Assembly: GCA_020060565.1 (NCBI GenBank)
Contig: JAGVAE010000003.1
Location: 20,072 to 84,071 of the forward strand
Direction of reading: 5' to 3'
DNA length: 64,000 nucleotides
Source of the DNA: Candidatus Woesebacteria bacterium
GTDB lineage: Bacteria > Patescibacteriota > Microgenomatia > UBA8517
Positions 1 through 52,175 of the stretch are shown in pieces. A program made the translations under genes and the position numbers. A model generated the notes under the pieces. The model did not search any database and was not told where the DNA came from. It was given only the letters and a program-made list of their open reading frames with translations. How positions within the stretch are numbered: the first letter of the stretch is position 1; each line of letters begins with the position of its first letter.

Positions 1-1800
1 TATTTTAAAGTAAAAGACTCCAGAAAAAAACTTGGTGAGCTTGCTTCTGAATTCTACGACAGCCCAAGTAAAAAACTAAAAATTATAGGAGTTACAGGAA
101 CTAAGGGTAAAACTACAACAGTCCATTTAATTTATCACATACTAACTTCACTTGGAAAAAAAGTCGGACTTGTTTCATCTATTGCAGCAAAGATTGGAGA
201 GCGCGAAGTTGATACTGGATTTCATGTCACAAGCCCTAATGTGGTTTCACTTCACAAATTTTTAAAAGAAATGGTGACGGCAGGTTGTGAATATGCAGTA
301 ATTGAAGTTAGTTCTCACGGGATAGATCAAAAAAGAATTGAGGGTGTTGAATTTGAAGTTGGGGTTTTAACCAATATTGCTCCAGAACACCTTGATTATC
401 ACAAAACCTTAAAAGAATACAAAAGAATAAAAATGTCCTTTATTGACTCATGTAGACAAAAAGTAATAGCTCCTACAGAAACAAATCTAAAAGTAATTTC
501 TGGATTTTTTAATAATCTAAATGCAGAAGCAGCAATAAAAACTGTAAAACTTTTAGGTTTTGATAAAGATAAAGCGCAAAATACACTTAAATCATTTGGA
601 CTTCCAGTTGGAAGACTTGAGGAAATAAAGAATGAACTGGGTATAAAGATAATTGTTGATTTTGCCCACACTCCCGATTCACTTTTTGCAGCCTTGACTC
701 ATTTAAGAAAGGAAACCAAAGGAAAATTATTTTCAGTTTTTGGCTGTGCAGGAGAAAGGGATCATAGAAAACGTCGAAAAATGGGCAAAATATCAAGTGA
801 TTTAGCAGATTTTTCAGTTTTTACTGCAGAGGATCCAAGAAGTGAAAAGTTAACAGATATTTTTAAACTTATGAAAAAAGATGCAAAAAATTACGTTTGC
901 GTACCCGAACGGGGAGAGGCAGTTGCATATGCACTAAGCAAAGCTACGAAGGGAGATACTGTAGCATTCTTTGGAAAAGGACATGAGACCAGTATGGCAT
1001 ATGATGGTTTTGAACACTTGTGGCGCGATCAAAAAGCTATCAGGAATTATTTGAAAAGAGATCTGACAATCTCAGCAATTATTCTTGCCGCAGGAAAAGG
1101 ATCGCGTATGCATTCAAATAAGCCCAAAGTAATTCATAAGATTTGTGGAAAACCTATGATCACATATACTTTGGAAAACCTAAGAGGAAGTGGGGTTGGA
1201 GAGATTATTGCAGTAGTTTCATTCAAGAAGAACTTAGTTATAAAGGTAATTGAGGGGGCAGTCAAATTTGCAGTTCAGAATAACCCCAAAGGTGGAACAG
1301 CGGATGCAGCAAAAACAGGTTATTCCCAAGTGTCAGCTAATATCAAAACATTAATTGTTATCAATGGGGACGATAGTGCTTTTTATACACCAGAAACTAT
1401 TAAGAAAATAATTGAAATTCATAGAGAAAGAGAAAGAAAACTAACATTCGTTTCATTAATGAAAGACAATCCCACAGGTTTAGGACGTGTAATACGTGGA
1501 GAAAATGGTTTAATTACTAAAATTGTTGAGGAAAAAGATGCGACTTCTGAAGAAAGAAAAACTAAAGAAGTAAATGATGGCCTTTATGTATTTGATAGAA
1601 AATGGTTTGATGGAAACATCCAAAAAGTCAAAAAAGGACCGCAAGGAGAGTACTACTTGGTGGACTTAATTAAACTTGCAATTGATCAAGGAGATAGAAT
1701 GGCAACATATACTCTTCCCAACGATCTTGAGTGGCAGGGAATTAATACTCCAGAAGAACTTGAAAAAGCTAAACAAAAAATGGAGGCGAGAATAAAATGA
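1..1800 (+). CDS. murE: UDP-N-acetylmuramoyl-tripeptide ligase MurE (5' partial) fused to a GlmU-like N-terminal sugar-1-phosphate uridyltransferase domain. MurE part is about 1-1060, nucleotidyltransferase part about 1069-1800.
   Basis: Frame 1 is open from base 1, so the gene starts upstream of the window. The Mur ligase P-loop GVTGTKGKTTT lies at about nt 85-115. The MurE C-terminal domain motifs DFAHTPDSL, FGCAGERD and GKGHE are present. The C-terminal ~245 aa (ISAIILAAGKGSRM, PTGLGRVIRGENG, IVEEKDATSEERK, GEYYLVDLIKLA) match the GlmU uridyltransferase domain closely. There is no acetyltransferase beta-helix. Confidence 0.8.
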   Translation, partial: YFKVKDSRKKLGELASEFYDSPSKKLKIIGVTGTKGKTTTVHLIYHILTSLGKKVGLVSSIAAKIGEREVDTGFHVTSPNVVSLHKFLKEMVTAGCEYAVIEVSSHGIDQKRIEGVEFEVGVLTNIAPEHLDYHKTLKEYKRIKMSFIDSCRQKVIAPTETNLKVISGFFNNLNAEAAIKTVKLLGFDKDKAQNTLKSFGLPVGRLEEIKNELGIKIIVDFAHTPDSLFAALTHLRKETKGKLFSVFGCAGERDHRKRRKMGKISSDLADFSVFTAEDPRSEKLTDIFKLMKKDAKNYVCVPERGEAVAYALSKATKGDTVAFFGKGHETSMAYDGFEHLWRDQKAIRNYLKRDLTISAIILAAGKGSRMHSNKPKVIHKICGKPMITYTLENLRGSGVGEIIAVVSFKKNLVIKVIEGAVKFAVQNNPKGGTADAAKTGYSQVSANIKTLIVINGDDSAFYTPETIKKIIEIHRERERKLTFVSLMKDNPTGLGRVIRGENGLITKIVEEKDATSEERKTKEVNDGLYVFDRKWFDGNIQKVKKGPQGEYYLVDLIKLAIDQGDRMATYTLPNDLEWQGINTPEELEKAKQKMEARIK

Positions 1801-3914
1801 AACTTCACTTTGTTGGTATTGGGGGGAGTGGAATATCTGGTGTTGCGAGTTTAGCTGAAAAATTTGGCTACAATGTAACTGGTTGCGATTTAGAAATGGG
1901 TGGACACAGTGTAGACCATATTAAAGATGTTGACTTAGTAATCGTTACACCTGCAGTTTTTTATCAAAATAACAACCACCCAGAAATATTGGAAGCTAAA
2001 AAACAAAAAAAACTCATGACATGGGAGGAATTTTTGGGAAAGGTTTTATTAAAAGATAAAAAACTAATTTGTATTGCTGGAACTCACGGTAAATCCACCA
2101 CAACTGCAATGGCGGCAAAACTATTAATAGACAACGGATTTGATCCAGTTGTTGTGGTTGGGGCAAAAGTATCCGAGTGGAATGGTAACTCCCGATACGG
2201 TGAAGGTGAATATGCAGTTGTTGAGGCCGATGAATTCAACAATAACTTTCTTTTCTATAATCCTGACATTGCAATTATTAATAACATTGAATTTGACCAT
2301 CCAGATTTTTTCAAAAATGAAAAAGAGGTAAGAGCTAGTTTTGATAAATTTATAAAGAATTTAAAAGGAGAAAAAATATTAATAACTGAGAAGGACAGTC
2401 AAAACAAAAAATTCAATCTGAAACTCTTAGGTGAACACAATCAAAAAAATGCCAATATGGTTTACATATTGGGAAAGAAATTAGGAATTAGGGATGAGGA
2501 TATAGTTAGGTCTCTGGAATATTTTAAAGGAATCAGTAGAAGATTAGAATTAATTGTAGATAGAGGTGGAATTGAAATTTATGATGATTATGCACATCAC
2601 CCAACTGCTATTAAAACAACTTTTGAAGGTTTAAGGCGTGAGTATCCTAAGGCAAAAATATTAGCAATAGTTGAGCCGCATGGATATAAAAGAACAAAAG
2701 CACTTTTAAAAAACTATAATGGGGTTTTTGATAATGTAGATAGAGTGATTGTTGGTCCTATTTTTCCAGCTCGTGATAAAGTAGATAATTCGATTACGCC
2801 AGAATTAGTAGCCAAGGCATCAGGTCATAAAAACGCAAGTGGATTTAGTAGTTTTGAAGACGTCATTGAAGATTGTAAATTGATAATTGGTAATTACAAT
2901 GTAGTTGTCGTCATGGGTGCTGGAAAAAGTAATTATTGGGCAAAAGAAATTGTAGGACTATTGCCAGTTAGCTTTTCTGACATTACAACCTTTAGGATTG
3001 GAGGAAAAATAAAGAAATGTTTTGAAGTTAAAAATGAATCAGAAATTAGAGGCGCTTTAGATTATGCAGACAAAAACAATTTTCCTATTTTTATACTTGG
3101 AGGAGGTAGTGATATATTGGCTTCAGACAAAAAGTTTAATGGTGTTGTCATTAAATATACATCAAGTAGTATTTTAGTTGGAGAAGATGGAATAGTAACT
3201 GCTGACGCAGGTGCTAGTTGGGATAGATTAGTAGAGGAAACGGTAAAAAGTGATCTTGCGGGTTTGGAATGTCTTTCAGGTATTCCTGGAACGGTTGGAG
3301 CATCTCCCATTCAAAACATAGGGGCTTACGGTCAAGAACTTGCAGATACATTTATCAAATTAGTGGCATACGATATTGAAAAAAGAAAATTTGTAACTTT
3401 TGATAAGAAAGCTTGCAATTTTGGTTATAGAGAAAGTATTTTTAAACAACCGCAGTATTGGCAAAAATTCATAATTACAAAAGTTACTTTTAAACTCTCA
3501 AGATACACAGATACAGATATAACCCTAGAGAATATTAGAGAAGAAATATTAAGAGTTAGATCAGAAAAACTTGAAGATCCACAAAACATCCCGAACGCAG
3601 GATCCTTTTTCAAAAATCCAGTTATTGATTTACAACAAAAAGAAAAGATTATTTCAAAGTATCCAGGAGTTGTTATTTACTCTTTTGAAAATAGGTATAA
3701 AGTATCTGCGGCCTGGTTAATAGAAAGTTGTGGCTGGAAAGGAAAGGAATATAAATCAGCATCAGTTTCGTCTAAGCACGCTCTAATACTTATAAATAAA
3801 AATGGTAAAGCGAAGGCTGAAGATGTTTTAGAACTTTCTGACAAAATAATTTCTGATGTATATAAAAAGTTTGGAATAAAATTGGAGAGAGAAGTACAGT
3901 TAATAAATTTTTAA
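1797..3914 (+). CDS. murC: Bifunctional MurC-MurB fusion: UDP-N-acetylmuramate--L-alanine ligase (about 1797-2960) plus UDP-N-acetylenolpyruvoylglucosamine reductase (about 2970-3914)
   Basis: The N-terminus VGIGGSGISGVA...AGTHGKSTTT is a MurC-type Mur ligase. The C-terminal ~310 aa (FRIGGKI...LGGGSDIL...GLECLSGIPGTVGASPIQNIGAYG) is a MurB FAD-binding/reductase domain. The ATGA start overlaps the murE stop. Confidence 0.8.
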   Translation: MKLHFVGIGGSGISGVASLAEKFGYNVTGCDLEMGGHSVDHIKDVDLVIVTPAVFYQNNNHPEILEAKKQKKLMTWEEFLGKVLLKDKKLICIAGTHGKSTTTAMAAKLLIDNGFDPVVVVGAKVSEWNGNSRYGEGEYAVVEADEFNNNFLFYNPDIAIINNIEFDHPDFFKNEKEVRASFDKFIKNLKGEKILITEKDSQNKKFNLKLLGEHNQKNANMVYILGKKLGIRDEDIVRSLEYFKGISRRLELIVDRGGIEIYDDYAHHPTAIKTTFEGLRREYPKAKILAIVEPHGYKRTKALLKNYNGVFDNVDRVIVGPIFPARDKVDNSITPELVAKASGHKNASGFSSFEDVIEDCKLIIGNYNVVVVMGAGKSNYWAKEIVGLLPVSFSDITTFRIGGKIKKCFEVKNESEIRGALDYADKNNFPIFILGGGSDILASDKKFNGVVIKYTSSSILVGEDGIVTADAGASWDRLVEETVKSDLAGLECLSGIPGTVGASPIQNIGAYGQELADTFIKLVAYDIEKRKFVTFDKKACNFGYRESIFKQPQYWQKFIITKVTFKLSRYTDTDITLENIREEILRVRSEKLEDPQNIPNAGSFFKNPVIDLQQKEKIISKYPGVVIYSFENRYKVSAAWLIESCGWKGKEYKSASVSSKHALILINKNGKAKAEDVLELSDKIISDVYKKFGIKLEREVQLINF

Positions 3915-37820: not shown

Positions 37821-38095
37821 GGGCGGGATCGACGAGATTCGGACTCGCAACCTCTTCCGTGCGAAAAAATCTTCTTGTTTCCAAAAAGCTCGGACTATCT
37901 CATCACCCGCAGGGTGAAATTATCACCACCTTACGGGGCCAGGTATATAGTCTCTACACATTTACACTTTCGTGCTTTAGCTCGGGATTGCCATTTTAAA
38001 GGTTTCCCCGAATTAGCCTGGTTTTACATCCCGCATTACTGCGGGACGCTGCCACAATTGACAGGGAAGCGCTCTAGCCATTGAGCTACGACCCC
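37821..38095 (-). tRNA. Intron-containing tRNA; the insert has P/Q/R/S-like group I intron elements. Exons assemble to a 73-nt tRNA with an Asp-like (GUC) anticodon loop CTGT|CAC. Exon 1 is 38061-38095 and exon 2 is about 37824-37861.
   Basis: 5' exon GGGGTCGTAGCTCAATGGCTAGAGCGCTTCCCTGT gives the acceptor, D-arm and the 5' half of the anticodon stem CTTCC. 3' exon CACGGAAGAGGTTGCGAGTCCGAATCTCGTCGATCCCG supplies GGAAG pairing with CTTCC, a T-arm GCGAG-TCCGAAT-CTCGT, acceptor CGATCCC pairing with GGGGTCG, and discriminator G. A 199-nt insert separates them. Confidence 0.6.
37862..38060 (-). ncRNA. Candidate group I intron within the tRNA anticodon loop
   Basis: 199 nt. The 5' exon ends in U and the intron ends in G, with P1 CUGU/GCAG. 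P-like AAUGCGGGAUG pairs with Q-like CAAUCCCGAG (P4). R-like GUAGAGACUAUAUACC pairs with S-like GAGAUAGUCC (P7, GACUAU/AUAGUC). There is no internal ORF. Confidence 0.6.
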
Positions 38096-43799: not shown

Positions 43800-44108
43800 A
43801 TGGCAAGGCTTACAAAAGCAGATGTTTTGCATGTTGCAAGACTAGCAAAATTAAACCTAACAGATAATGAAATTAAAAAGTTTCTTCCTCAGCTTTCTTC
43901 TATTGTAGATTATATAAGTGAGCTTGAAAAAGTTGACACTAAGAATATTGAACCAACAAGCCAGACCACTGGACTTACCAATGTTTTTAGGGGGGATGAT
44001 ATAAAATTAAGCTCAATTGATCAAAATAAGGCACTATCAGGAACAGACAAAACCCACAATGGTTATTTCAAAGTCCCAGCAATCTTAGAAGGAAGGAGTG
44101 ACAAATGA
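43800..44108 (+). CDS. gatC: Asp-tRNA(Asn)/Glu-tRNA(Gln) amidotransferase subunit C
   Basis: VLHVARLAKLNLTDNEIKKFLPQLSSIVDYISELEKVDT matches GatC. Directly upstream of gatA with an ATGA overlap. Confidence 0.8.
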   Translation: MARLTKADVLHVARLAKLNLTDNEIKKFLPQLSSIVDYISELEKVDTKNIEPTSQTTGLTNVFRGDDIKLSSIDQNKALSGTDKTHNGYFKVPAILEGRSDK

Positions 44109-45478
44109 ATACAATACCTTTTACAATCAGAGAGACAAAAGAGGGGCTTCTAGCTAAAAAGTTTTCTGCAGTAGAACTTGTTGACGAATACCTCTCACGT
44201 ATCGAAAAAAATAAAGATCTTAACGCATTCCTAACTATTTCAGATGAAGTTGCATATAAAAAAGCCAAAGAACTTGAATCAAATTTAGAAGATTTACCTC
44301 TTTTGGGAACGGTGGTGGCACACAAAGATTTATTTTTAACAGAAGGAGTAAGAACTACAGCAGCATCAAAAGTTTTGGAAAGCTACGTTCCAGCCTATTC
44401 ATCTACCGTGGTTGAGCGAATGGAAAAAGCAGGTGCAATAATGATCGGCAAAACCAATTGTGATGCTTGGGCTCACGGCGCAAGTGGAGAAAATTCTGAT
44501 TTCAGTCCAACTAAAAATCCATGGAATAAAAAACATGTTCCAGGTGGATCAAGCAGTGGCTCAGCCGCTTCAGTTGCTGCGGGTTTATCACTTGTTGCAA
44601 CAGGAACAGATACGGGAGGATCAATAAGAGAACCTGCAAATTTCTGTGGAGTTGTAGGATTTAAGCCCACATATGGAGCAGTTTCAAGATATGGCGTAAT
44701 TGCAATGTCCTCATCACTGGATAGTATTGGTTCATTTGGTCACACAGTAGAAGATGTTGAAACAATTTTCAATGTTGTTAAAGGTCCAGACGGCTTTGAC
44801 AGTACCGTTACTAATGGCCAATCACTAATTACTAATCGCAAATTTAGAATTGGAATTCCCAAGGAATATTTTATCGACGGGTTAGATCGTGAAGTAGAAA
44901 AGTCGGTTCTTACAGCTTCTCAAGTATTTAAAGATAATGGAATAGAACTAGTAGATATTAGTCTTCCTAATACGAAATACGCCATTGATGTTTATTATAT
45001 AGTTCAGCCAGCTGAGGTTTCTTCAAATTTAGGTAGGTATGATGGAATAAGATATGGAAATGGCCGTGACTTGTTCGGAGCAGAGGCAAAAAGAAGAATA
45101 ATGCTTGGAACTTACGTATTATCCGCCGGTTATTACGATGCCTACTATCTCAAAGCTCAAAAGGTAAGATCACTTCTAATCCAGGATTTTGATAATGTTT
45201 TTGAAAAAGTTGATGCGATAATAGCACCCGTTTCACCTACCCCTGCATTTAAGCTAGAAGAGAAAGCAGCTGATCCTTTACAAATGTACTTAGCTGATAT
45301 TTTTACAGTATCAGCAAACCTAGTAGGAATTCCAGGTCTTGCGGTTCCTTCAGGATTTAATTCAGAAAATCTTCCATTAGGATTTCAGCTTATGGCACCG
45401 CGTTTTTGCGAAAGTACTCTTTTTGAATTAGGAAAACTTTATCAAAAGTCGGTCAGTTATGTTCCAAAACTACCATGA
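44105..45478 (+). CDS. gatA: Glutamyl-tRNA(Gln) amidotransferase subunit A
   Basis: Amidase signature GGSSSGSAASVAAG; catalytic region KTNCDAWAHGASGENS. Confidence 0.85.
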   Translation: MNTIPFTIRETKEGLLAKKFSAVELVDEYLSRIEKNKDLNAFLTISDEVAYKKAKELESNLEDLPLLGTVVAHKDLFLTEGVRTTAASKVLESYVPAYSSTVVERMEKAGAIMIGKTNCDAWAHGASGENSDFSPTKNPWNKKHVPGGSSSGSAASVAAGLSLVATGTDTGGSIREPANFCGVVGFKPTYGAVSRYGVIAMSSSLDSIGSFGHTVEDVETIFNVVKGPDGFDSTVTNGQSLITNRKFRIGIPKEYFIDGLDREVEKSVLTASQVFKDNGIELVDISLPNTKYAIDVYYIVQPAEVSSNLGRYDGIRYGNGRDLFGAEAKRRIMLGTYVLSAGYYDAYYLKAQKVRSLLIQDFDNVFEKVDAIIAPVSPTPAFKLEEKAADPLQMYLADIFTVSANLVGIPGLAVPSGFNSENLPLGFQLMAPRFCESTLFELGKLYQKSVSYVPKLP

Positions 45479-46746
45479 TAGCTGAATTTAAATCAATATT
45501 TAAAAAACCGGGATTTATGTATTTATGGGGGTCTCAAATATTTTCTCAAGTAACAATACACATGTTGAATTTTTTGCTTTTGGCTCATCTGTATGAAGCA
45601 ACAAATTCAACTATAGCCACATCCCTCCTCTGGGTAGCATACGCTCTTCCTGCTCTTTTTATTGGACCAATTGGAGCCGCAAGCGTTGATCTTGTGAGTC
45701 GTCGTAAAACTCTAATGATAGCTAATCTTTTACAGGCTTTAACAGTTTTTGTATACATATTTATAAACCAACAATCGATTTTTATTCTTTATGCAATTGC
45801 ATTAATTTATTCATCTTTAAATCAATTTTATGGCCCAGCCGAACTCGCCACCTTACCTGGTACGGTTGGTAAGAAAATGTTAGCCAGAGCAAATAGTCTT
45901 TTTTTCACAACTTCCCAAGCAGCACTCATATTAGGTTTTGGATTTGCAGGAATTTTACAAAAACTGATTGGATTTAATGGCACATTAATTCTTGCAACAA
46001 CACTTCTGTTTTTGGCCTTTGTAAGTGTTAGTTTTTTGACTGAAGTGAAACCAAAGAAAAAACTACCTGTCGAGTTTGAAAAGGTATTAAAAACATTTTT
46101 TAATACTATTGTCGAAGGCTATGTATTTATTAAATCTAATAAAACCGTCCTATTTCCCTTACTTATTCTTCTGGGTATTCAAGCAACCCTAGCTATTATG
46201 CTTGTAAATTTACCCGTAATTGCTGCACAAATTTTAAATATCTCAGTCAGTTATTCAGGAGTTTCTTTAGTTGTTCCAGCGGGAATTGGTGCTTTGTTGG
46301 GAGCTACCTATATTCCAAGCTTAATTAAAAAAGGGTGGAGAAAGAAAAGATTAATAGATGCGGGTTTGATTATTACGGTTATTGCATTAGTAGCCATGGC
46401 CATTGGAATTCCACTCCTACCAATAGCAGTCAGGTTAACGTTTACGTCTTTTCTGATTATTGCTACAGGTATCGCCTTTGTAGCAATAAATATTCCTGCC
46501 CTTACTTTTTTGCAGGAGTCTACACCCCAATGGTTTAGAGGTAGAGTATTCGGAAATCTTTGGTTTATGACCTCCATTATTAGTATTATTCCTGTTCTTT
46601 TTACAGGAGCCATTTCAGAAATATTTGGTGTAAAAACGCTTTTAGTTTTAATGGCCGCAGGAATCCTTTTTGTATTTCTTTATTCTAAAAAAAGAGGACA
46701 AATTTTAATTGTTACTCACTTAAACTCAAATGGAAAACAAAAGTAA
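45475..46746 (+). CDS. MFS transporter
   Basis: 423 aa with about 12 TM segments and an MFS-like loop between TM2 and TM3. Inserted between gatA and gatB. Confidence 0.6.
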   Translation: MIAEFKSIFKKPGFMYLWGSQIFSQVTIHMLNFLLLAHLYEATNSTIATSLLWVAYALPALFIGPIGAASVDLVSRRKTLMIANLLQALTVFVYIFINQQSIFILYAIALIYSSLNQFYGPAELATLPGTVGKKMLARANSLFFTTSQAALILGFGFAGILQKLIGFNGTLILATTLLFLAFVSVSFLTEVKPKKKLPVEFEKVLKTFFNTIVEGYVFIKSNKTVLFPLLILLGIQATLAIMLVNLPVIAAQILNISVSYSGVSLVVPAGIGALLGATYIPSLIKKGWRKKRLIDAGLIITVIALVAMAIGIPLLPIAVRLTFTSFLIIATGIAFVAINIPALTFLQESTPQWFRGRVFGNLWFMTSIISIIPVLFTGAISEIFGVKTLLVLMAAGILFVFLYSKKRGQILIVTHLNSNGKQK

Positions 46747-48061
46747 ATATACACCAGTAATTGGTTTGGAAGTACATATAGAGCTTTCTACTATTACAAA
46801 GCTTTTCTGCAGCTGTTCCTCTGATCACTTTGCAAAGAGGCCCAATACACAAGTTTGCCCTGTTTGCATGGGTCTTCCTGGTGCATTACCTTGCACAAAC
46901 TATGATGCTGTGGTTTCAACGATTAAATTTGGACTTGCAATGGGGTCAAGGATAAATTTATTTAGTAAATTTGATAGAAAACACTATTTTTATCCAGATC
47001 TCCCTAAAAGCTATCAAATTTCTCAATACGATTTACCCTTTTGTGTAGGAGGAAGCCTGAATAACAAAAAAATCACAAGAGTTCATTTAGAAGAAGATAC
47101 AGGCAAGCTTGTACATGAAACAATAGATGGAGTAAAATGTTCCCTAATTGATTTTAATAGAAGCTCTGTTCCTCTCATGGAAATGGTTACAGAACCTGAT
47201 TTCCACGACACAGAAAGTGTTGTAGCCTTCCTAAAAGAAGTTCAGCTAATAGCCAGATACCTTGGGATAAGTAATGCTGATATGGAAAAGGGTAGCATGA
47301 GATTGGAGGCAAACATATCATTAGCGAATAGCGAAGAGCGAATAGCGAATAGGTTGCCAAATTACAAAGTAGAACTAAAAAATATAAACTCATTTAGATT
47401 TCTTGATAAGGCTATAAAGGCAGAAATACTAAGACAAGAGGAACTACTTCTTAAGGGAGAGGTTATTTCTCAAGAAACCAGAGGGTATGATGAAATAAAG
47501 CAAACAACCTACCTCCAAAGAGTTAAAGAAGAAGCTAATGATTATAGATATTTCCCAGAACCAGACCTTCCCCCAATTAGGTTTACCCAAGATCAGGTAG
47601 AGAATATCAGAAGCCAGATTCCAGAACTACCCAGTCAAAAAAGAGAAAAGATTGAAAAAGTATACGGTCTATCTAAAGACTTCGCAGATATTTTAGTATC
47701 AGACCAAAAGAGAGCAAAGTATTTTGAAGAAGCCCTTCGCCAAGCTCAGGGTAAACCAATGGTAACTGCAAAGATGGTTGCAGACTTAATGATAAACAAA
47801 AAACTAGACAAGGAATTTCCAGAACCAGCAGGACTAATTAGAAGAATACTGGAAATCTCGAACGTAAAGTATTCATCGAATGAAGAGGTTGATAATGCCG
47901 TGAAAAGTGTAATAATGACGAATGAAAAAGCAGTTAATGATTATAAGGCAGGAAACGGCAACGTTATTGGATTTTTGATGGGAATGGTACAAAAAGAATT
48001 AAATGGAAAAGGCAATGCACAAACGGTTCGTGAGAAATTATTAAAAAAATTACAAGAATGA
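46730..48061 (+). CDS. gatB: Asp-tRNA(Asn)/Glu-tRNA(Gln) amidotransferase subunit B
   Basis: N-terminal PVIGLEVHIELSTITKLFCSCS and GatB core motifs. Confidence 0.8.
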   Translation: MENKSKYTPVIGLEVHIELSTITKLFCSCSSDHFAKRPNTQVCPVCMGLPGALPCTNYDAVVSTIKFGLAMGSRINLFSKFDRKHYFYPDLPKSYQISQYDLPFCVGGSLNNKKITRVHLEEDTGKLVHETIDGVKCSLIDFNRSSVPLMEMVTEPDFHDTESVVAFLKEVQLIARYLGISNADMEKGSMRLEANISLANSEERIANRLPNYKVELKNINSFRFLDKAIKAEILRQEELLLKGEVISQETRGYDEIKQTTYLQRVKEEANDYRYFPEPDLPPIRFTQDQVENIRSQIPELPSQKREKIEKVYGLSKDFADILVSDQKRAKYFEEALRQAQGKPMVTAKMVADLMINKKLDKEFPEPAGLIRRILEISNVKYSSNEEVDNAVKSVIMTNEKAVNDYKAGNGNVIGFLMGMVQKELNGKGNAQTVREKLLKKLQE

Positions 48062-48687
48062 CAGATAAAGGATCAGAATTTAAATATGAAGCAGCAACTT
48101 TAGCAAATCTTCATCTTGGAGAAGCAAAAGTAAGTATGGATGATGAAATTGTAAAAGATAGAGGAAAGAGAGTTTTGGGTACAGACAGAGGTGCTTTTAC
48201 TTTGAGAACTTACGAAGTTGCGCAAGAGTCAATGGTTGATAAGCTGACAGGATTACTAAACAGAAAGGGTTACGAACACGAAATGAATAAATTTTATGAT
48301 TACTATAAACGTACTAGAGGGAGTTTTTGGATAGCCATGCTAGATTTAGATAATTTTAAAGGAATTAATGACACAAAGGGACATGTTTATGGAGATAATG
48401 TATTAAAAAGTTTTGGCAGATCAATTCAAGAGAGATTTAGAAAAGGTGATATATGTGGGAGATATGGTGGTGATGAAGCAATAATTATGTTGACCACAGG
48501 ATTACTCAATCCTGAAGATATTGACTTGGAAGAGAAAGACATTTCAGATCAACTTGCAAACAAAATTGGGACTGGGGTTAGTATAGGAATAGTTAAATGG
48601 GACGGTAGATCAACATTGGAAGATACTATCCAACAAGCAGATAATAAACTTTATCAAAATAAGAAGATGAGAAAAATCCAGGAATAA
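48058..48687 (+). CDS. Small GGDEF-domain protein with a variant GGDEA motif
   Basis: LTGLLNRKGY...FWIAMLDLDNFKGINDTKGHVYGDNVLKSFG...RKGDICGRYGGDEAIIML. The I-site-like RKGD lies 5 residues upstream of GGDEA. 209 aa, with no sensor domain. Confidence 0.7.
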   Translation: MTDKGSEFKYEAATLANLHLGEAKVSMDDEIVKDRGKRVLGTDRGAFTLRTYEVAQESMVDKLTGLLNRKGYEHEMNKFYDYYKRTRGSFWIAMLDLDNFKGINDTKGHVYGDNVLKSFGRSIQERFRKGDICGRYGGDEAIIMLTTGLLNPEDIDLEEKDISDQLANKIGTGVSIGIVKWDGRSTLEDTIQQADNKLYQNKKMRKIQE

Positions 48688-51600
48688 TGTCTAAATTTGT
48701 CCACCTTCATGTTCACACAGAATATTCCCTTCTTGATGGACTAAGTAATATAAAGAAGCTTTTTGCTCATGTTAAAGAACAAGGAATGGATGCAGTTGCC
48801 ATCACAGATCATGGAGTCATGTATGGAGAAATTGAATTCTATAAAGAAGGTCTAAAACAAGGCATAAAGCCTATACTTGGGATGGAGGGTTATATTACTT
48901 CAGGAGACCTTCATGATCGTCCTGAGCGTACCACACTTCAGAATTATCATCTTTTAATCTTGGCGAAAAATATAGAAGGTTATAATAATTTAATGAAACT
49001 TTCCTCAATTGCACACCTGGAAGGTTTTTACTACCGTCCACGCTTTGATAGGGAAACTCTTAAAAAATATTCTAAAGGTTTGATTGTTACCTCTGCTTGT
49101 CCTGCTGGTGAAGTTGGACAAAGTTTAATAAATGATAACTACAAAGAAGCTAAAAAAATAGTTGAGTGGTATCAAGATGTTTTTAAGGATGACTATTATC
49201 TTGAAATGCAGCGTCACGAGTCAGAAAAATGGATAGATAAAGCAGCCACAACGGAGTTAAAAAACTTAGTTTCAGAGCTTTCTGTCAATGAAAACAAATG
49301 GAATGAAGGTATACTTAAACTCTCGCGTGAATTAGGTGTACCAATAGTGGCTACAAACGATGCTCATTATATTAAACAGGAAGACGCCTTAGCTCAAGAT
49401 GCCCTAGTTTGTGTAGCAACAGGCAAAAACATGAGTGAAACCAAAAGGATGAGATACATTGATACACAAACTTATTATGTTAGAAGTCCAAAAGAAATGG
49501 AGCTTCTTTTTTCAGATCTTCCAGATGCTCTAGAAAACACGGTCAAAATTGCAGATAAATGTAATTTAGAGATTAAACTTGGAGTTTGGAGTTTTCCAAA
49601 ATTTCCACTTCCTAGGGGGGTAAGCGCAGATAAACATTTAAGAAATCTTTCACATAAAGCTTTAAAAGAAAAAATTCCAAATGCTGATAAAGAAGCTGAA
49701 ACCCGTCTTGAACATGAACTTGGAATTATTTGTCAGAAAGGTTACTCACCATATTTCTTAATTGTAAGAGATCTTGCAAACTGGGCCATTTCTCAAGGAA
49801 TAGTAACTAATACTAGAGGTTCTGCAGCAGGAAGTTTAGTCTCATACGTTTTAGGAATTACAACAGTTAATCCACTAACATATTATCTTCCCTTTGAAAG
49901 ATTTCTAAACCCGTACCGTCCCAGCCCTCCAGATATCGATTTTGATGTTGCGGACGATAGACGTGATGAGATTATTGCCTACATTACAAACAAATACGGT
50001 AAAGAAAAAGTAGCACAAATCTGTACTTTTGGAAGAATGTTGTCTCGGGCCGCAGTTAGAGATGTAGCTCGTGTTTTGGGTTACCCATATAATGTAGGAG
50101 ATAGAATAGCCAAAATAATTCCCCCTCCAAAACAAGGGTTCCCAATAACAATAGGTAAAGCCATGGAAGAAGTCCCCGATCTTAAAAGTTTATACAATAG
50201 TGATCCTGATACTAAAAAGGTATTAGATCTGGCTATGCAGGTTGAAGGCTCGGCTCGTCATGTTTCGGTCCACGCAGCAGGATTAGTGGTTGCCCCAACT
50301 GATGTTACAGATTTTGCTCCGATTCAAAAAGAGCCATCTGGAGAAAAAATAATTACTCAATACGAATTTCACACGTGCGAAGAAGTGGGACTTATCAAAT
50401 TTGACATACTAGGAATTCGCAACTTATCTATCCTTGGAGCTGCTATTGATATTGTTGAGGAAAGTGAAGATTTTAGCAGTATTAGGATTGATCTTCACAA
50501 GATTCCACTTGACGATAGAAAGACTTTTGAAATGTTGGCCAAGGGGGAAACCATGGGAGTATTTCAATTCGCGGGTGGTGGCATGACCAAGTACTTAAAA
50601 GAACTTAAACCCAATAGAGTTGAAGACCTCATGGCTATGGTTGCACTCTATCGTCCTGGCCCCATTGCAGTTATTCCTGAATATATTAAAAGAAAGAATA
50701 ATCCAAAACTTGTTAAATATTTGGATCCAAGAATGGAGAGATTTTTAAAAGCCAGTTATGGTCTTATTGTCTATCAAGACGATCTCCTTTTCTGTGCATT
50801 AGATCTAGCAGGTTATACATGGGAAGAAGCAGATAAGTTTAGGAAAGCTGTGGGAAAGAAAATTCCTGAGGAAATGGCAGCCCAGAAAGATAAATTTGTA
50901 AAAGGAATCATCGATAATGGACAAACTGAAAAATTTGCAGAGGAACTTTGGAAACTATTTGAACCGTTCCAATCCTACGGATTTAATAAAGCTCATGCGG
51001 CCTCATATGGGATAGTTGCATATTATACAGCTTATATGAAAGCTAATTACCCTGTGGAATACATGACCGCTCTTTTGACTGCAGAAAGTGGAGATACAGA
51101 GAAAGTTTCAGCAGCTATAAATGAATGTAGACGCATGGGTATTAAGGTTCTTCCTCCAGACATAAACGAAAGTGATACAGGTTTTACTATCATTAAAGAT
51201 AAAGACTCTATAAACAGTAAAGCTATTCGTTTTGGTTTTTCGGCTGTTAAAAATGTAGGGGGGGTTGCAATCGAAATAATACTTGAGGCAAGAAAAACGG
51301 GAAAATTTGAATCATTTTCCGATTTTGTAGGCAGGGTCGATGCACGAAAGGTAAACAAAAAGGTATTAGAAAGTCTAATTAAAGTAGGTGCACTTTCCAA
51401 ATATGGATGTCGTGCAGCACTTCTTGCTTCAATGGATAAAATTAGAGAAAAAATGGTCAAACCCAAAGGGGATGATAACCAACCCGGTTTATTTGCAGTC
51501 ACTGAGATAAAAAATGCGGGGCCAACTGAGGTGGTTACCATTGAAAGTATTCAAGAGTTTACAGAGGATGAACTTCAGAACCTTGAACGTCAACTATTGG

Positions 51601-52175
51601 GTTTTTCTCTTTCTGCAAAGCCAATAAGTGAAGTGATTGGGCCTCTGGAATTTCAATCAACACATAAGATATTTGAAATATCAGCAGATGAGACATATAC
51701 AGATTTAGTTAAAGTTGCGGGAGTCTTAACTGAGGTCAGAGTTATAACGACAAAAAAAACAGGAGCTGAGATGGCATTTGCAAAGGCTGAGGATGGAACT
51801 GGAATTCTAGAACTTGTGGTTTTTCCAAAGATTTTTAAAAACACAAGGGACTTTTGGGTTTCAGGCCAACCCTTACTAATCACGGGAAGAGTTGATGTTC
51901 GAGACGAGTCGCCAAATCTTCTTGTAGAGGCTATCGAAACTATGACTAGTCTCAGTGAAAAGAAAGAACGTGAGGTTTACATAAAAATTCCAAAAACTGT
52001 AGATACAAATACTTTAAAGAAGTTAAAAGAGCTTTTAACTTCGAATATGGGAGATCAAATTGCATATCTTCAATTTGAAGGAGGCAAGAGAGTAAAATTA
52101 TCCTTCAAAATAGCTTGGAATGAGTCTTTAGCCAAAGCCATTGCTGAGTGCCTGGAGATGCGATATAATAACTGA
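48687..52175 (+). CDS. dnaE: DNA polymerase III alpha subunit
   Basis: PHP start FVHLHVHTEYSLLDG; 1162 aa; polIII alpha fingers/palm region; OB fold near the C-terminus. Confidence 0.85.
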   Translation: MSKFVHLHVHTEYSLLDGLSNIKKLFAHVKEQGMDAVAITDHGVMYGEIEFYKEGLKQGIKPILGMEGYITSGDLHDRPERTTLQNYHLLILAKNIEGYNNLMKLSSIAHLEGFYYRPRFDRETLKKYSKGLIVTSACPAGEVGQSLINDNYKEAKKIVEWYQDVFKDDYYLEMQRHESEKWIDKAATTELKNLVSELSVNENKWNEGILKLSRELGVPIVATNDAHYIKQEDALAQDALVCVATGKNMSETKRMRYIDTQTYYVRSPKEMELLFSDLPDALENTVKIADKCNLEIKLGVWSFPKFPLPRGVSADKHLRNLSHKALKEKIPNADKEAETRLEHELGIICQKGYSPYFLIVRDLANWAISQGIVTNTRGSAAGSLVSYVLGITTVNPLTYYLPFERFLNPYRPSPPDIDFDVADDRRDEIIAYITNKYGKEKVAQICTFGRMLSRAAVRDVARVLGYPYNVGDRIAKIIPPPKQGFPITIGKAMEEVPDLKSLYNSDPDTKKVLDLAMQVEGSARHVSVHAAGLVVAPTDVTDFAPIQKEPSGEKIITQYEFHTCEEVGLIKFDILGIRNLSILGAAIDIVEESEDFSSIRIDLHKIPLDDRKTFEMLAKGETMGVFQFAGGGMTKYLKELKPNRVEDLMAMVALYRPGPIAVIPEYIKRKNNPKLVKYLDPRMERFLKASYGLIVYQDDLLFCALDLAGYTWEEADKFRKAVGKKIPEEMAAQKDKFVKGIIDNGQTEKFAEELWKLFEPFQSYGFNKAHAASYGIVAYYTAYMKANYPVEYMTALLTAESGDTEKVSAAINECRRMGIKVLPPDINESDTGFTIIKDKDSINSKAIRFGFSAVKNVGGVAIEIILEARKTGKFESFSDFVGRVDARKVNKKVLESLIKVGALSKYGCRAALLASMDKIREKMVKPKGDDNQPGLFAVTEIKNAGPTEVVTIESIQEFTEDELQNLERQLLGFSLSAKPISEVIGPLEFQSTHKIFEISADETYTDLVKVAGVLTEVRVITTKKTGAEMAFAKAEDGTGILELVVFPKIFKNTRDFWVSGQPLLITGRVDVRDESPNLLVEAIETMTSLSEKKEREVYIKIPKTVDTNTLKKLKELLTSNMGDQIAYLQFEGGKRVKLSFKIAWNESLAKAIAECLEMRYNN

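Follow-up and report, generated by a model that had tools for sequence, protein, structure and literature searches.

A small stand-alone GGDEF protein with a GGDEA motif, probably a diguanylate cyclase, in the gatB-dnaE slot of a Candidatus Woesebacteria bacterium and its relatives

Receptor-type GGDEF domains such as PelD and PopA have a degenerate active site (A-site). The solved stand-alone or coiled-coil diguanylate cyclases TM1788 of Thermotoga maritima (4urs/4urg), SiaD of Pseudomonas aeruginosa (7e6g) and DgcB of Caulobacter crescentus (6ttr) were the closest described systems for the gene product considered here. The gene lies at 48058-48687 on the forward strand of a 64,000-nt stretch of DNA from a Candidatus Woesebacteria bacterium (assembly GCA_020060565.1, contig JAGVAE010000003.1, positions 20,072 to 84,071), referred to below as the window, and its 209-residue product carries the motif GGDEA. 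Residue roles in the GGDEF domain have been described from a Hypr GGDEF structure (PMC6456294). Briefly, an Asn contacts the sugar face of the base and an Asp or Ser at the Watson-Crick face sets GTP-specific versus promiscuous use, with Ser found in Hypr proteins; Mg2+ is held by the motif Asp, general-base catalysis across the dimer falls to the motif Glu, and the guanine of the partner stacks against an Arg found in 94% of cyclases, its place being taken by Tyr or another residue in Hypr proteins (PMC6456294). Variation at the fifth motif residue has been described for LchD (GGDEV) of Lysobacter enzymogenes, which inhibits Escherichia coli swimming like cyclases do while its GGAAV mutant does not (PMC8035640), and GGDEL/M have likewise been treated as probably active (PMC12900916). 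Diguanylate cyclase genes have been counted in genomes of the candidate phyla radiation (CPR) (PMC9938205); a literature search on Patescibacteria/CPR and GGDEF gave nothing relevant beyond that paper, and no discussion of a GGDEA motif was found in the literature searched.

The window protein was matched by Pfam PF00990 over residues 59-205 (48232-48672, forward strand; E 2.5e-29, 102.5 bits against a cut-off of 23.8) and by TIGR00254 (E 2.5e-34, 118.4 bits against a cut-off of 37.4), and it matched forty-eight solved GGDEF chains, the best being the T. maritima diguanylate cyclase 4urs (E 2.9e-19). An AlphaFold 2 (AF2) model was obtained at pLDDT 89.3 and pTM 0.80, with values of pLDDT 88-98 in the catalytic domain, and a Foldseek search with it matched SiaD (7e6g at E 1.5e-13), TM1788, WspR and PleD at probability 1.00. 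Fold, active-site residues and RxxD spacing were the same as in TM1788, SiaD and DgcB at approximately 23-33% identity. The window protein differed from these three in having Ala rather than Phe as the fifth motif residue and in a lineage-specific N-terminus of 58 residues with an extra helix and loop, and no known activator such as SiaC was encoded near its gene. An identical protein was already present in NCBI and JGI, annotated as a 'diguanylate cyclase (GGDEF)-like protein' on a 132,504-nt contig.

The A-site motif (G137, G138, D139, E140 and A141; 48466-48480, forward strand) is preceded at the canonical spacing of five residues by the RxxD of an inhibitory site or I-site (R128, K129, G130 and D131; 48439-48450, forward strand), giving the order RKGD-ICGRY-GGDEA, and both elements had been read correctly in a preliminary description of this DNA. 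Orthologue alignments (A1 and A4) were invariant at the first metal Asp (D96), at K101 of the DxDxFK segment, at N104 and D113, a guanine-reading pair nine residues apart which we take to be equivalent to PleD N335/D344, at D105, H109 (the conserved His of the NDxxGH segment) and G112, at R128 and D131 of the I-site, at R135 two residues before the motif, at G137, G138, D139 and E140, and at K202, which with R205 forms the phosphate-binding Lys/Arg. Also invariant in the orthologues were D61, T64, G65 and R69 of the DxLTGLxNR segment, the last being the cross-dimer Arg. The window protein had the canonical cyclase residue at every role position listed in PMC6456294, and by sequence criteria it belongs with the ordinary-looking, I-site-bearing and catalytically competent diguanylate cyclases in everything except the fifth motif residue. 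The preliminary description had allowed that a loss of other catalytic residues would indicate a purely degenerate domain; all were retained, and that objection fails.

The same description had taken GGDEA as a hint of a receptor role or of another product, a suggestion not borne out by the specificity residues N104, D113 and R69, which are all canonical. Among 114 otherwise canonical generic GGDEF matches the fifth residue was F in 109, I in three and L in two, while in the cluster of window-type proteins (at least 40% identity, nine lineages) it was A five times, M twice, and V and F once each, these relatives keeping everything else as the fifth residue varied. The window protein's orthologue P0004 (lineage L021) is GGDEV. 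V, I, F and I stood at this position in further short stand-alone GGDEF proteins from the top of the profile-search results, and one more such match, with A (P0279), belonged to the window-type cluster. The motif hairpin in the AF2 model consisted of a strand at 132-135, the turn YGGD and a strand at 140-145, of which Ala141 is the second residue, beside the active-site-facing Glu140; strand geometry alone suggests that the side chain of Ala141 should face the core, at a structural and not a catalytic position. On these alignments the fifth residue is a tolerant structural position in the window-type family for which Phe is typical and not required, and it varies freely between A, V, M and F. 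LchD resembles the window protein in having a small aliphatic residue for Phe, and its genetically observed cyclase activity needs the D and E of the motif, although it is an unrelated proteobacterial protein with Val rather than Ala and the two are likened by motif alone. Compensation for the lost Phe by Trp181 was ruled out, as the related protein P0246 carries both the Trp and the Phe.

A comparison with the 76%-identical orthologue of lineage L019 gave a dN/dS of approximately 0.21 (Nei-Gojobori, one unsaturated pair), synonymous sites being saturated in the remoter orthologue pairs. Approximately sixty positions, including the whole active site, were invariant across orthologues down to 50% identity, and the orthologue frames were intact and of full length. 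The GGDEF protein evolved faster than GatB; in one set of genomes, for example, it was 50-57% identical where GatB was 70-78% identical. The low dN/dS and the invariant positions indicate a gene under purifying selection, one that is real and selectively maintained. The open reading frame (ORF) list contained no ORF of 50 or more residues on the opposite strand of this stretch, and a scan of genome contigs with the window protein returned generic GGDEF genes of Firmicutes and Thermotogae and no orthologue.

Both ends of the gene overlap its neighbours. The gatB stop shares four nucleotides with the ATG start of the GGDEF gene (ATGA at 48058-48061), and the TAA stop at 48685-48687 overlaps the start of dnaE by one nucleotide (TAATG at 48685-48689), in agreement with the small stand-alone ORF that had been seen in the DNA previously. 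The 5' neighbour gatB (46730-48061, forward strand) matched Pfam GatB_N (9.4e-102) and GatB_Yqey, and the 3' neighbour dnaE (48687-52175, forward strand) encodes DNA polymerase III alpha, the orthologues of which carry PHP, DNA_pol3_alpha and related Pfam families in precomputed annotations.

The junction was surveyed in relatives by a metagenome scan with GatB, which gave eighty further loci; the counts below cover the seventy-six lineages in which GatB was complete and the junction could be resolved. Relatives sharing 70-74% GatB identity were named 'Microgenomates group bacterium' or 'Candidatus Woesebacteria bacterium', which puts the host in the Microgenomates group of the CPR, probably close to Woesebacteria, and the relatives came from groundwater and similar metagenomes. 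In almost all of the approximately eighty CPR loci, across GatB identities of 47-100%, gatB was followed directly or nearly so by dnaE, and this pairing of a translation with a replication gene is by synteny itself a conserved feature of the lineage. A GGDEF gene occupied the slot in 22 of the 76 lineages, gatB and dnaE abutted in forty-one, and thirteen had another insert. All orthologues with readable context lay between gatB and dnaE with codons overlapping or abutting, and the start/stop overlaps and synteny were kept in lineages L019-L023, L026 and L111. Three GatB relatives picked regardless of GGDEF also had a small GGDEF ORF in the slot, at 27-30% identity to the window protein, and slot homologues were present in the public genomes GCA_000994565.1, GCA_040961665.1 and GCA_040960375.1. 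A family size of six clusters, estimated from a word-indexed protein search, was overturned by the neighbours of the GatB relatives, which showed the slot to be far more widely occupied. The placement that had been called unusual is therefore a conserved arrangement of the lineage and not an oddity of one genome, and the view that such a protein is unexpected in minimal genomes was overstated, given the CPR cyclase genes already reported (PMC9938205) and GGDEF genes in the same slot of many Microgenomates.

On a neighbour-joining tree of one protein, GatB, every member sampled from the clade to which the window belongs, with a single exception, had a GGDEF gene in the slot, as did most members of a second, distant clade, and the overall pattern needs at least seven gains or losses. 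No GGDEF remnants were found in the gaps between gatB and dnaE (best E 0.77), which held unrelated ORFs or a gene of the major facilitator superfamily (MFS). Motifs among the slot proteins included GGDEA, GGDEV, GGDEM, GGDEF, GGEEI and GGDEY as well as the degenerate QSDEF, GADEF, RGDEF, HGDEF and GGDDF. The RxxD was retained in nearly all occupants, those with degenerate A-sites included (L027 QSDEF, L035 GADEF, L068 HGDEF); R128 was present in all 23 slot proteins compared, and 19 of the 23 also had D131. The specificity position at the Watson-Crick face, otherwise Asp in cyclases, was Ser in the slot protein of L031 (2927-3571) and Asn in those of L034 (5298-5948) and L061 (5382-6044). In the close relatives L033 (5309-5719) and L074 (approximately 1055-1480) an ORF of 136-140 residues replaces the GGDEF gene; it has an hGG...DIDh signature reminiscent of Pol-beta-type nucleotidyltransferases, and its only Pfam match was a sub-threshold one to the MTPAP palm (E 0.0097).

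Replacement within the slot was seen directly between lineages L023 (GGDEF gene at 2436-3046) and L032 (4251-4858), both from Hainich groundwater, which had different GGDEF cassettes between near-identical flanks. The 5' flank was 98.9% identical over 2,436 nt and ended at the gatB stop, and the 3' flank was 99.1% identical over 530 nt beginning 18 nt inside dnaE, while the approximately 610 nt between them had no detectable nucleotide similarity and encoded proteins 25-30% identical, both with a complete active site and RxxD. A 726-nt contig (L025) from another replicate of the well of L032 carried a window-type cassette; the 54 nt at each of its ends matched the L032 flanks with 100% identity, a pattern typical of a bubble in an assembly graph. 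Judged by contig structure and sample names, one groundwater well thus contains at this locus two small cyclases that differ greatly from each other, and the sequences describe an exact, like-for-like cassette swap that is unusual for a signalling enzyme. At an identity threshold of 40% the window type formed one cluster, whose members were mixed on the GatB tree among those of at least seven other types; these shared 21-35% identity with it and with one another. GatB sister lineages with differing types were L019/L028, L022/L027, L026/L031 and L034/L035, and GGDEF identity was weakly correlated with GatB identity (Spearman 0.41, Mantel p approximately 0.002).

The earlier phrase 'bare GGDEF domain' was right in that the protein is small and stands alone, and not in that residues 1-58 (48058-48231, forward strand) precede the domain, are conserved and form two predicted helices. 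The AF2 model placed a helix at 4-20, a loop at 21-42 and a stalk helix at 43-58 continuing into the GGDEF domain, with pLDDT 73-88 over this region. Thirteen N-terminal positions were invariant in the orthologues (M1, D3, A12, A16, L20, G21, G36, L40, T42, G45, L49, E53 and A55). The model aligned to DgcB 6ttr at a Foldseek TMq of 0.69-0.70 over 170 columns and, judged by the length of the match, the probable counterpart of helix 43-58 is the coiled-coil stalk seen in DgcB 6ttr and SiaD. A profile of six orthologues run against 1.84 billion cluster representatives matched more than 500,000 GGDEF proteins. In this exhaustive search the N-terminus was matched in just two other representatives (P0005 and P0246), and the N-terminal module is therefore lineage-specific. 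It is plausible that residues 1-58 are a dimerisation or regulatory module.

Taken with the observed gene, domain, residue conservation, purifying selection and conserved synteny, the protein is probably a working, GTP-specific and product-inhibited diguanylate cyclase that is constitutively co-expressed with gatCAB and dnaE and dimerises through its N-terminal helices. Two GGDEF domains would be brought together by the two-helix module, each holding one GTP with its base read by Asn104 and Asp113 and its phosphates bound by Lys202/Arg205. Asp96 and Asp139 would bind Mg2+, Glu140 would act as general base across the dimer and Arg69 would stack on the guanine of the partner. The cyclic di-GMP (c-di-GMP) product would then feed back at the RKGD I-site, and Ala141 would stand for Phe at a core-facing structural position of strand beta-3. 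With translational coupling to gatB and dnaE, the cyclase would probably be made whenever this housekeeping string is expressed. We infer in this way the enzymatic activity, the N-terminal dimerisation, the co-transcription and the existence of downstream targets of the window protein.

Several points weigh against this proposal. The preliminary description had called for a search of the genome for turnover and receptor partners, and in the part of it covered by the 64-kb window, Pfam scans of approximately sixty ORFs found no EAL, HD-GYP, PilZ, MshEN or second GGDEF protein and Rfam found no c-di-GMP riboswitch; nor did the neighbouring genes in the relatives include a phosphodiesterase, a PilZ protein or a riboswitch for c-di-GMP. 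An Arg equivalent to PleD R390, which completes the I-site, was not evident in the alignment. The literature searched contained no tested enzyme with Phe changed to Ala at the fifth motif position, and dimerisation through residues 1-58 is suggested by the model only. Catalysis, moreover, appears not to be indispensable for whatever keeps a GGDEF gene in the slot, because several other occupants have degenerate motifs.

A minority possibility is a GGDEF domain of weak or lost catalytic activity that would serve as a nucleotide-binding regulator, taking up GTP in the A-site or c-di-GMP at the RxxD, and would act on a partner protein by way of its variable N-terminal module. The RxxD is the most persistent feature of the slot occupants, degenerate A-sites included, a non-canonical fifth residue could destabilise the beta-hairpin, and the absence of turnover partners nearby would also fit. 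However, PelD and PopA, which share the RxxD with the window protein, have lost the A-site that is kept here, where G137, G138, D139, E140, D96, N104, D113, K202 and R69 are all intact and invariant in the orthologues. The activity of the GGDEV enzyme LchD (PMC8035640) also argues for catalysis.

The replacements raise a further question of what the slot itself does. The junction of gatB and dnaE in Microgenomates may conceivably be a dedicated, recombination-prone GGDEF slot in which small cyclases of approximately 25-30% identity, most divergent in the N-terminal module, are maintained as alleles coexisting inside single populations, in the manner of pherotype or idiomorph loci, a suggestion we regard as rather doubtful. 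If it were true, the type of cyclase would encode a strain-specific interaction, with a host, a phage or a partner protein, while c-di-GMP output would stay tied to expression of the translation and replication string. Less likely again is a conflict or strain-recognition locus with the GGDEF gene as a single allele in a balanced polymorphism, diversified through interactions with phage, host or kin and not through ordinary housekeeping signalling. The exact exchange of cassettes between flanks of approximately 99% identity with both alleles in one well, the interleaved types and weak correlation with GatB (rho 0.41), and the nucleotidyltransferase-like small ORF in the slot of L033 and L074 are all in its favour. 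Against it, PADLOC gave no match for the window protein, and of five other slot GGDEF types tested four likewise had none, the weak matches for L031 being to Cas10 palm models as expected and that of the L074 ORF to PDC-M63A being marginal (E 0.009). Neither of the two Hainich alleles had a meaningful match to a known defence model. There is also no adjacent effector gene, the neighbours being gatB and dnaE, and selection within the window type is purifying. With neither a PADLOC model for the window protein nor an effector beside it, identity as a defence system was rejected, and a conflict locus would in any case be compatible with the protein being an ordinary cyclase.

A Hypr-like enzyme making cyclic GMP-AMP (cGAMP) or cyclic di-AMP (c-di-AMP) is very improbable. 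The odd motif alone had raised this suspicion, as a motif-level variant likewise raised the question of product for the Hypr protein GacA of Geobacter, which has the same domain, and the Ser of L031 and the Asn of L034 and L061 at the specificity position point the same way for those slot proteins; Ser together with a GGDEF motif, as in L031, is said to be permissive for Hypr activity (PMC6456294). The GacA features of Ser at the Watson-Crick position and a non-Arg cross-dimer residue are, however, absent from the window protein, which has Asp113 in place of Ser/Thr and Arg69 at the two positions by which the classes are told apart (PMC6456294), and the fifth motif residue has no part in that distinction. 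On Asp113 and Arg69 an alternative product was rejected. Equally improbable is a neutral or decaying passenger gene that persists only through its position between two essential ones, since the faster evolution relative to GatB (50-57% against 70-78% identity), the empty slot in 41 of 76 lineages and the degenerate occupants are set against a dN/dS of approximately 0.21, full-length intact frames and approximately sixty invariant positions, active site included, down to 50% identity.

The GGDEF gene sits within a packed string of genes on the same strand, in the order gatC-gatA-MFS-gatB-GGDEF-dnaE-L19-DUF5652-ruvC followed by glycolytic genes, in a window of approximately 35% G+C. The 5' part consists of gatC (43800-44108), gatA (44105-45478) and, between gatA and gatB with codons overlapping, an MFS transporter gene identified by Pfam (45475-46746), all on the forward strand. 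This MFS insertion is conserved in closer relatives, and the synteny of the upstream string was also found in L019, L021, L022, L027 and L111; in L078 and L107 the MFS gene lies instead between gatB and dnaE. No terminator-like site was found on the forward strand between 42400 and 54000, and the promoter and terminator scan, with counts not above those of shuffled sequence (34 versus 37.5 and 6 versus 7.3), neither defined nor broke an operon.

Elsewhere the window encodes a cell-wall and division cluster (mur genes, ftsW, murG, ftsA and ftsZ), isoleucyl-tRNA synthetase (IleRS), parB, inosine monophosphate dehydrogenase (IMPDH), a polysaccharide cluster at 27.4-34.5 kb, PolX, LemA and an M48 peptidase. 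Two apparent fusions were noted in the cell-wall cluster, one of Mur-ligase M/C domains with a nucleotidyl-transferase domain (241-1800, forward strand) and the next of a complete Mur ligase with MurB (FAD_binding_4 and MurB_C; 1797-3914, forward strand). A group I intron of 199 nt (37862-38060, reverse strand; Rfam Intron_gpI, 71.7 bits) splits a tRNA-Asp(GUC) gene (37824-38095) between anticodon positions 35 and 36, and ARAGORN missed this tRNA in the genomic sequence and called tRNA-Asp(gtc) after in silico splicing.

The conserved slot and the like-for-like replacement of its occupants are more unusual than the GGDEA motif itself. GGDEA is not to be taken as a sign of lost or altered function, a useful caution for censuses of c-di-GMP enzymes that rest on the motif. 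A genome-reduced, probably symbiotic CPR lineage would seem to keep a minimal cyclase hard-wired in its gatCAB-dnaE string, and the window cyclase may serve as a compact subject with which to ask whether CPR bacteria use c-di-GMP signalling at all.

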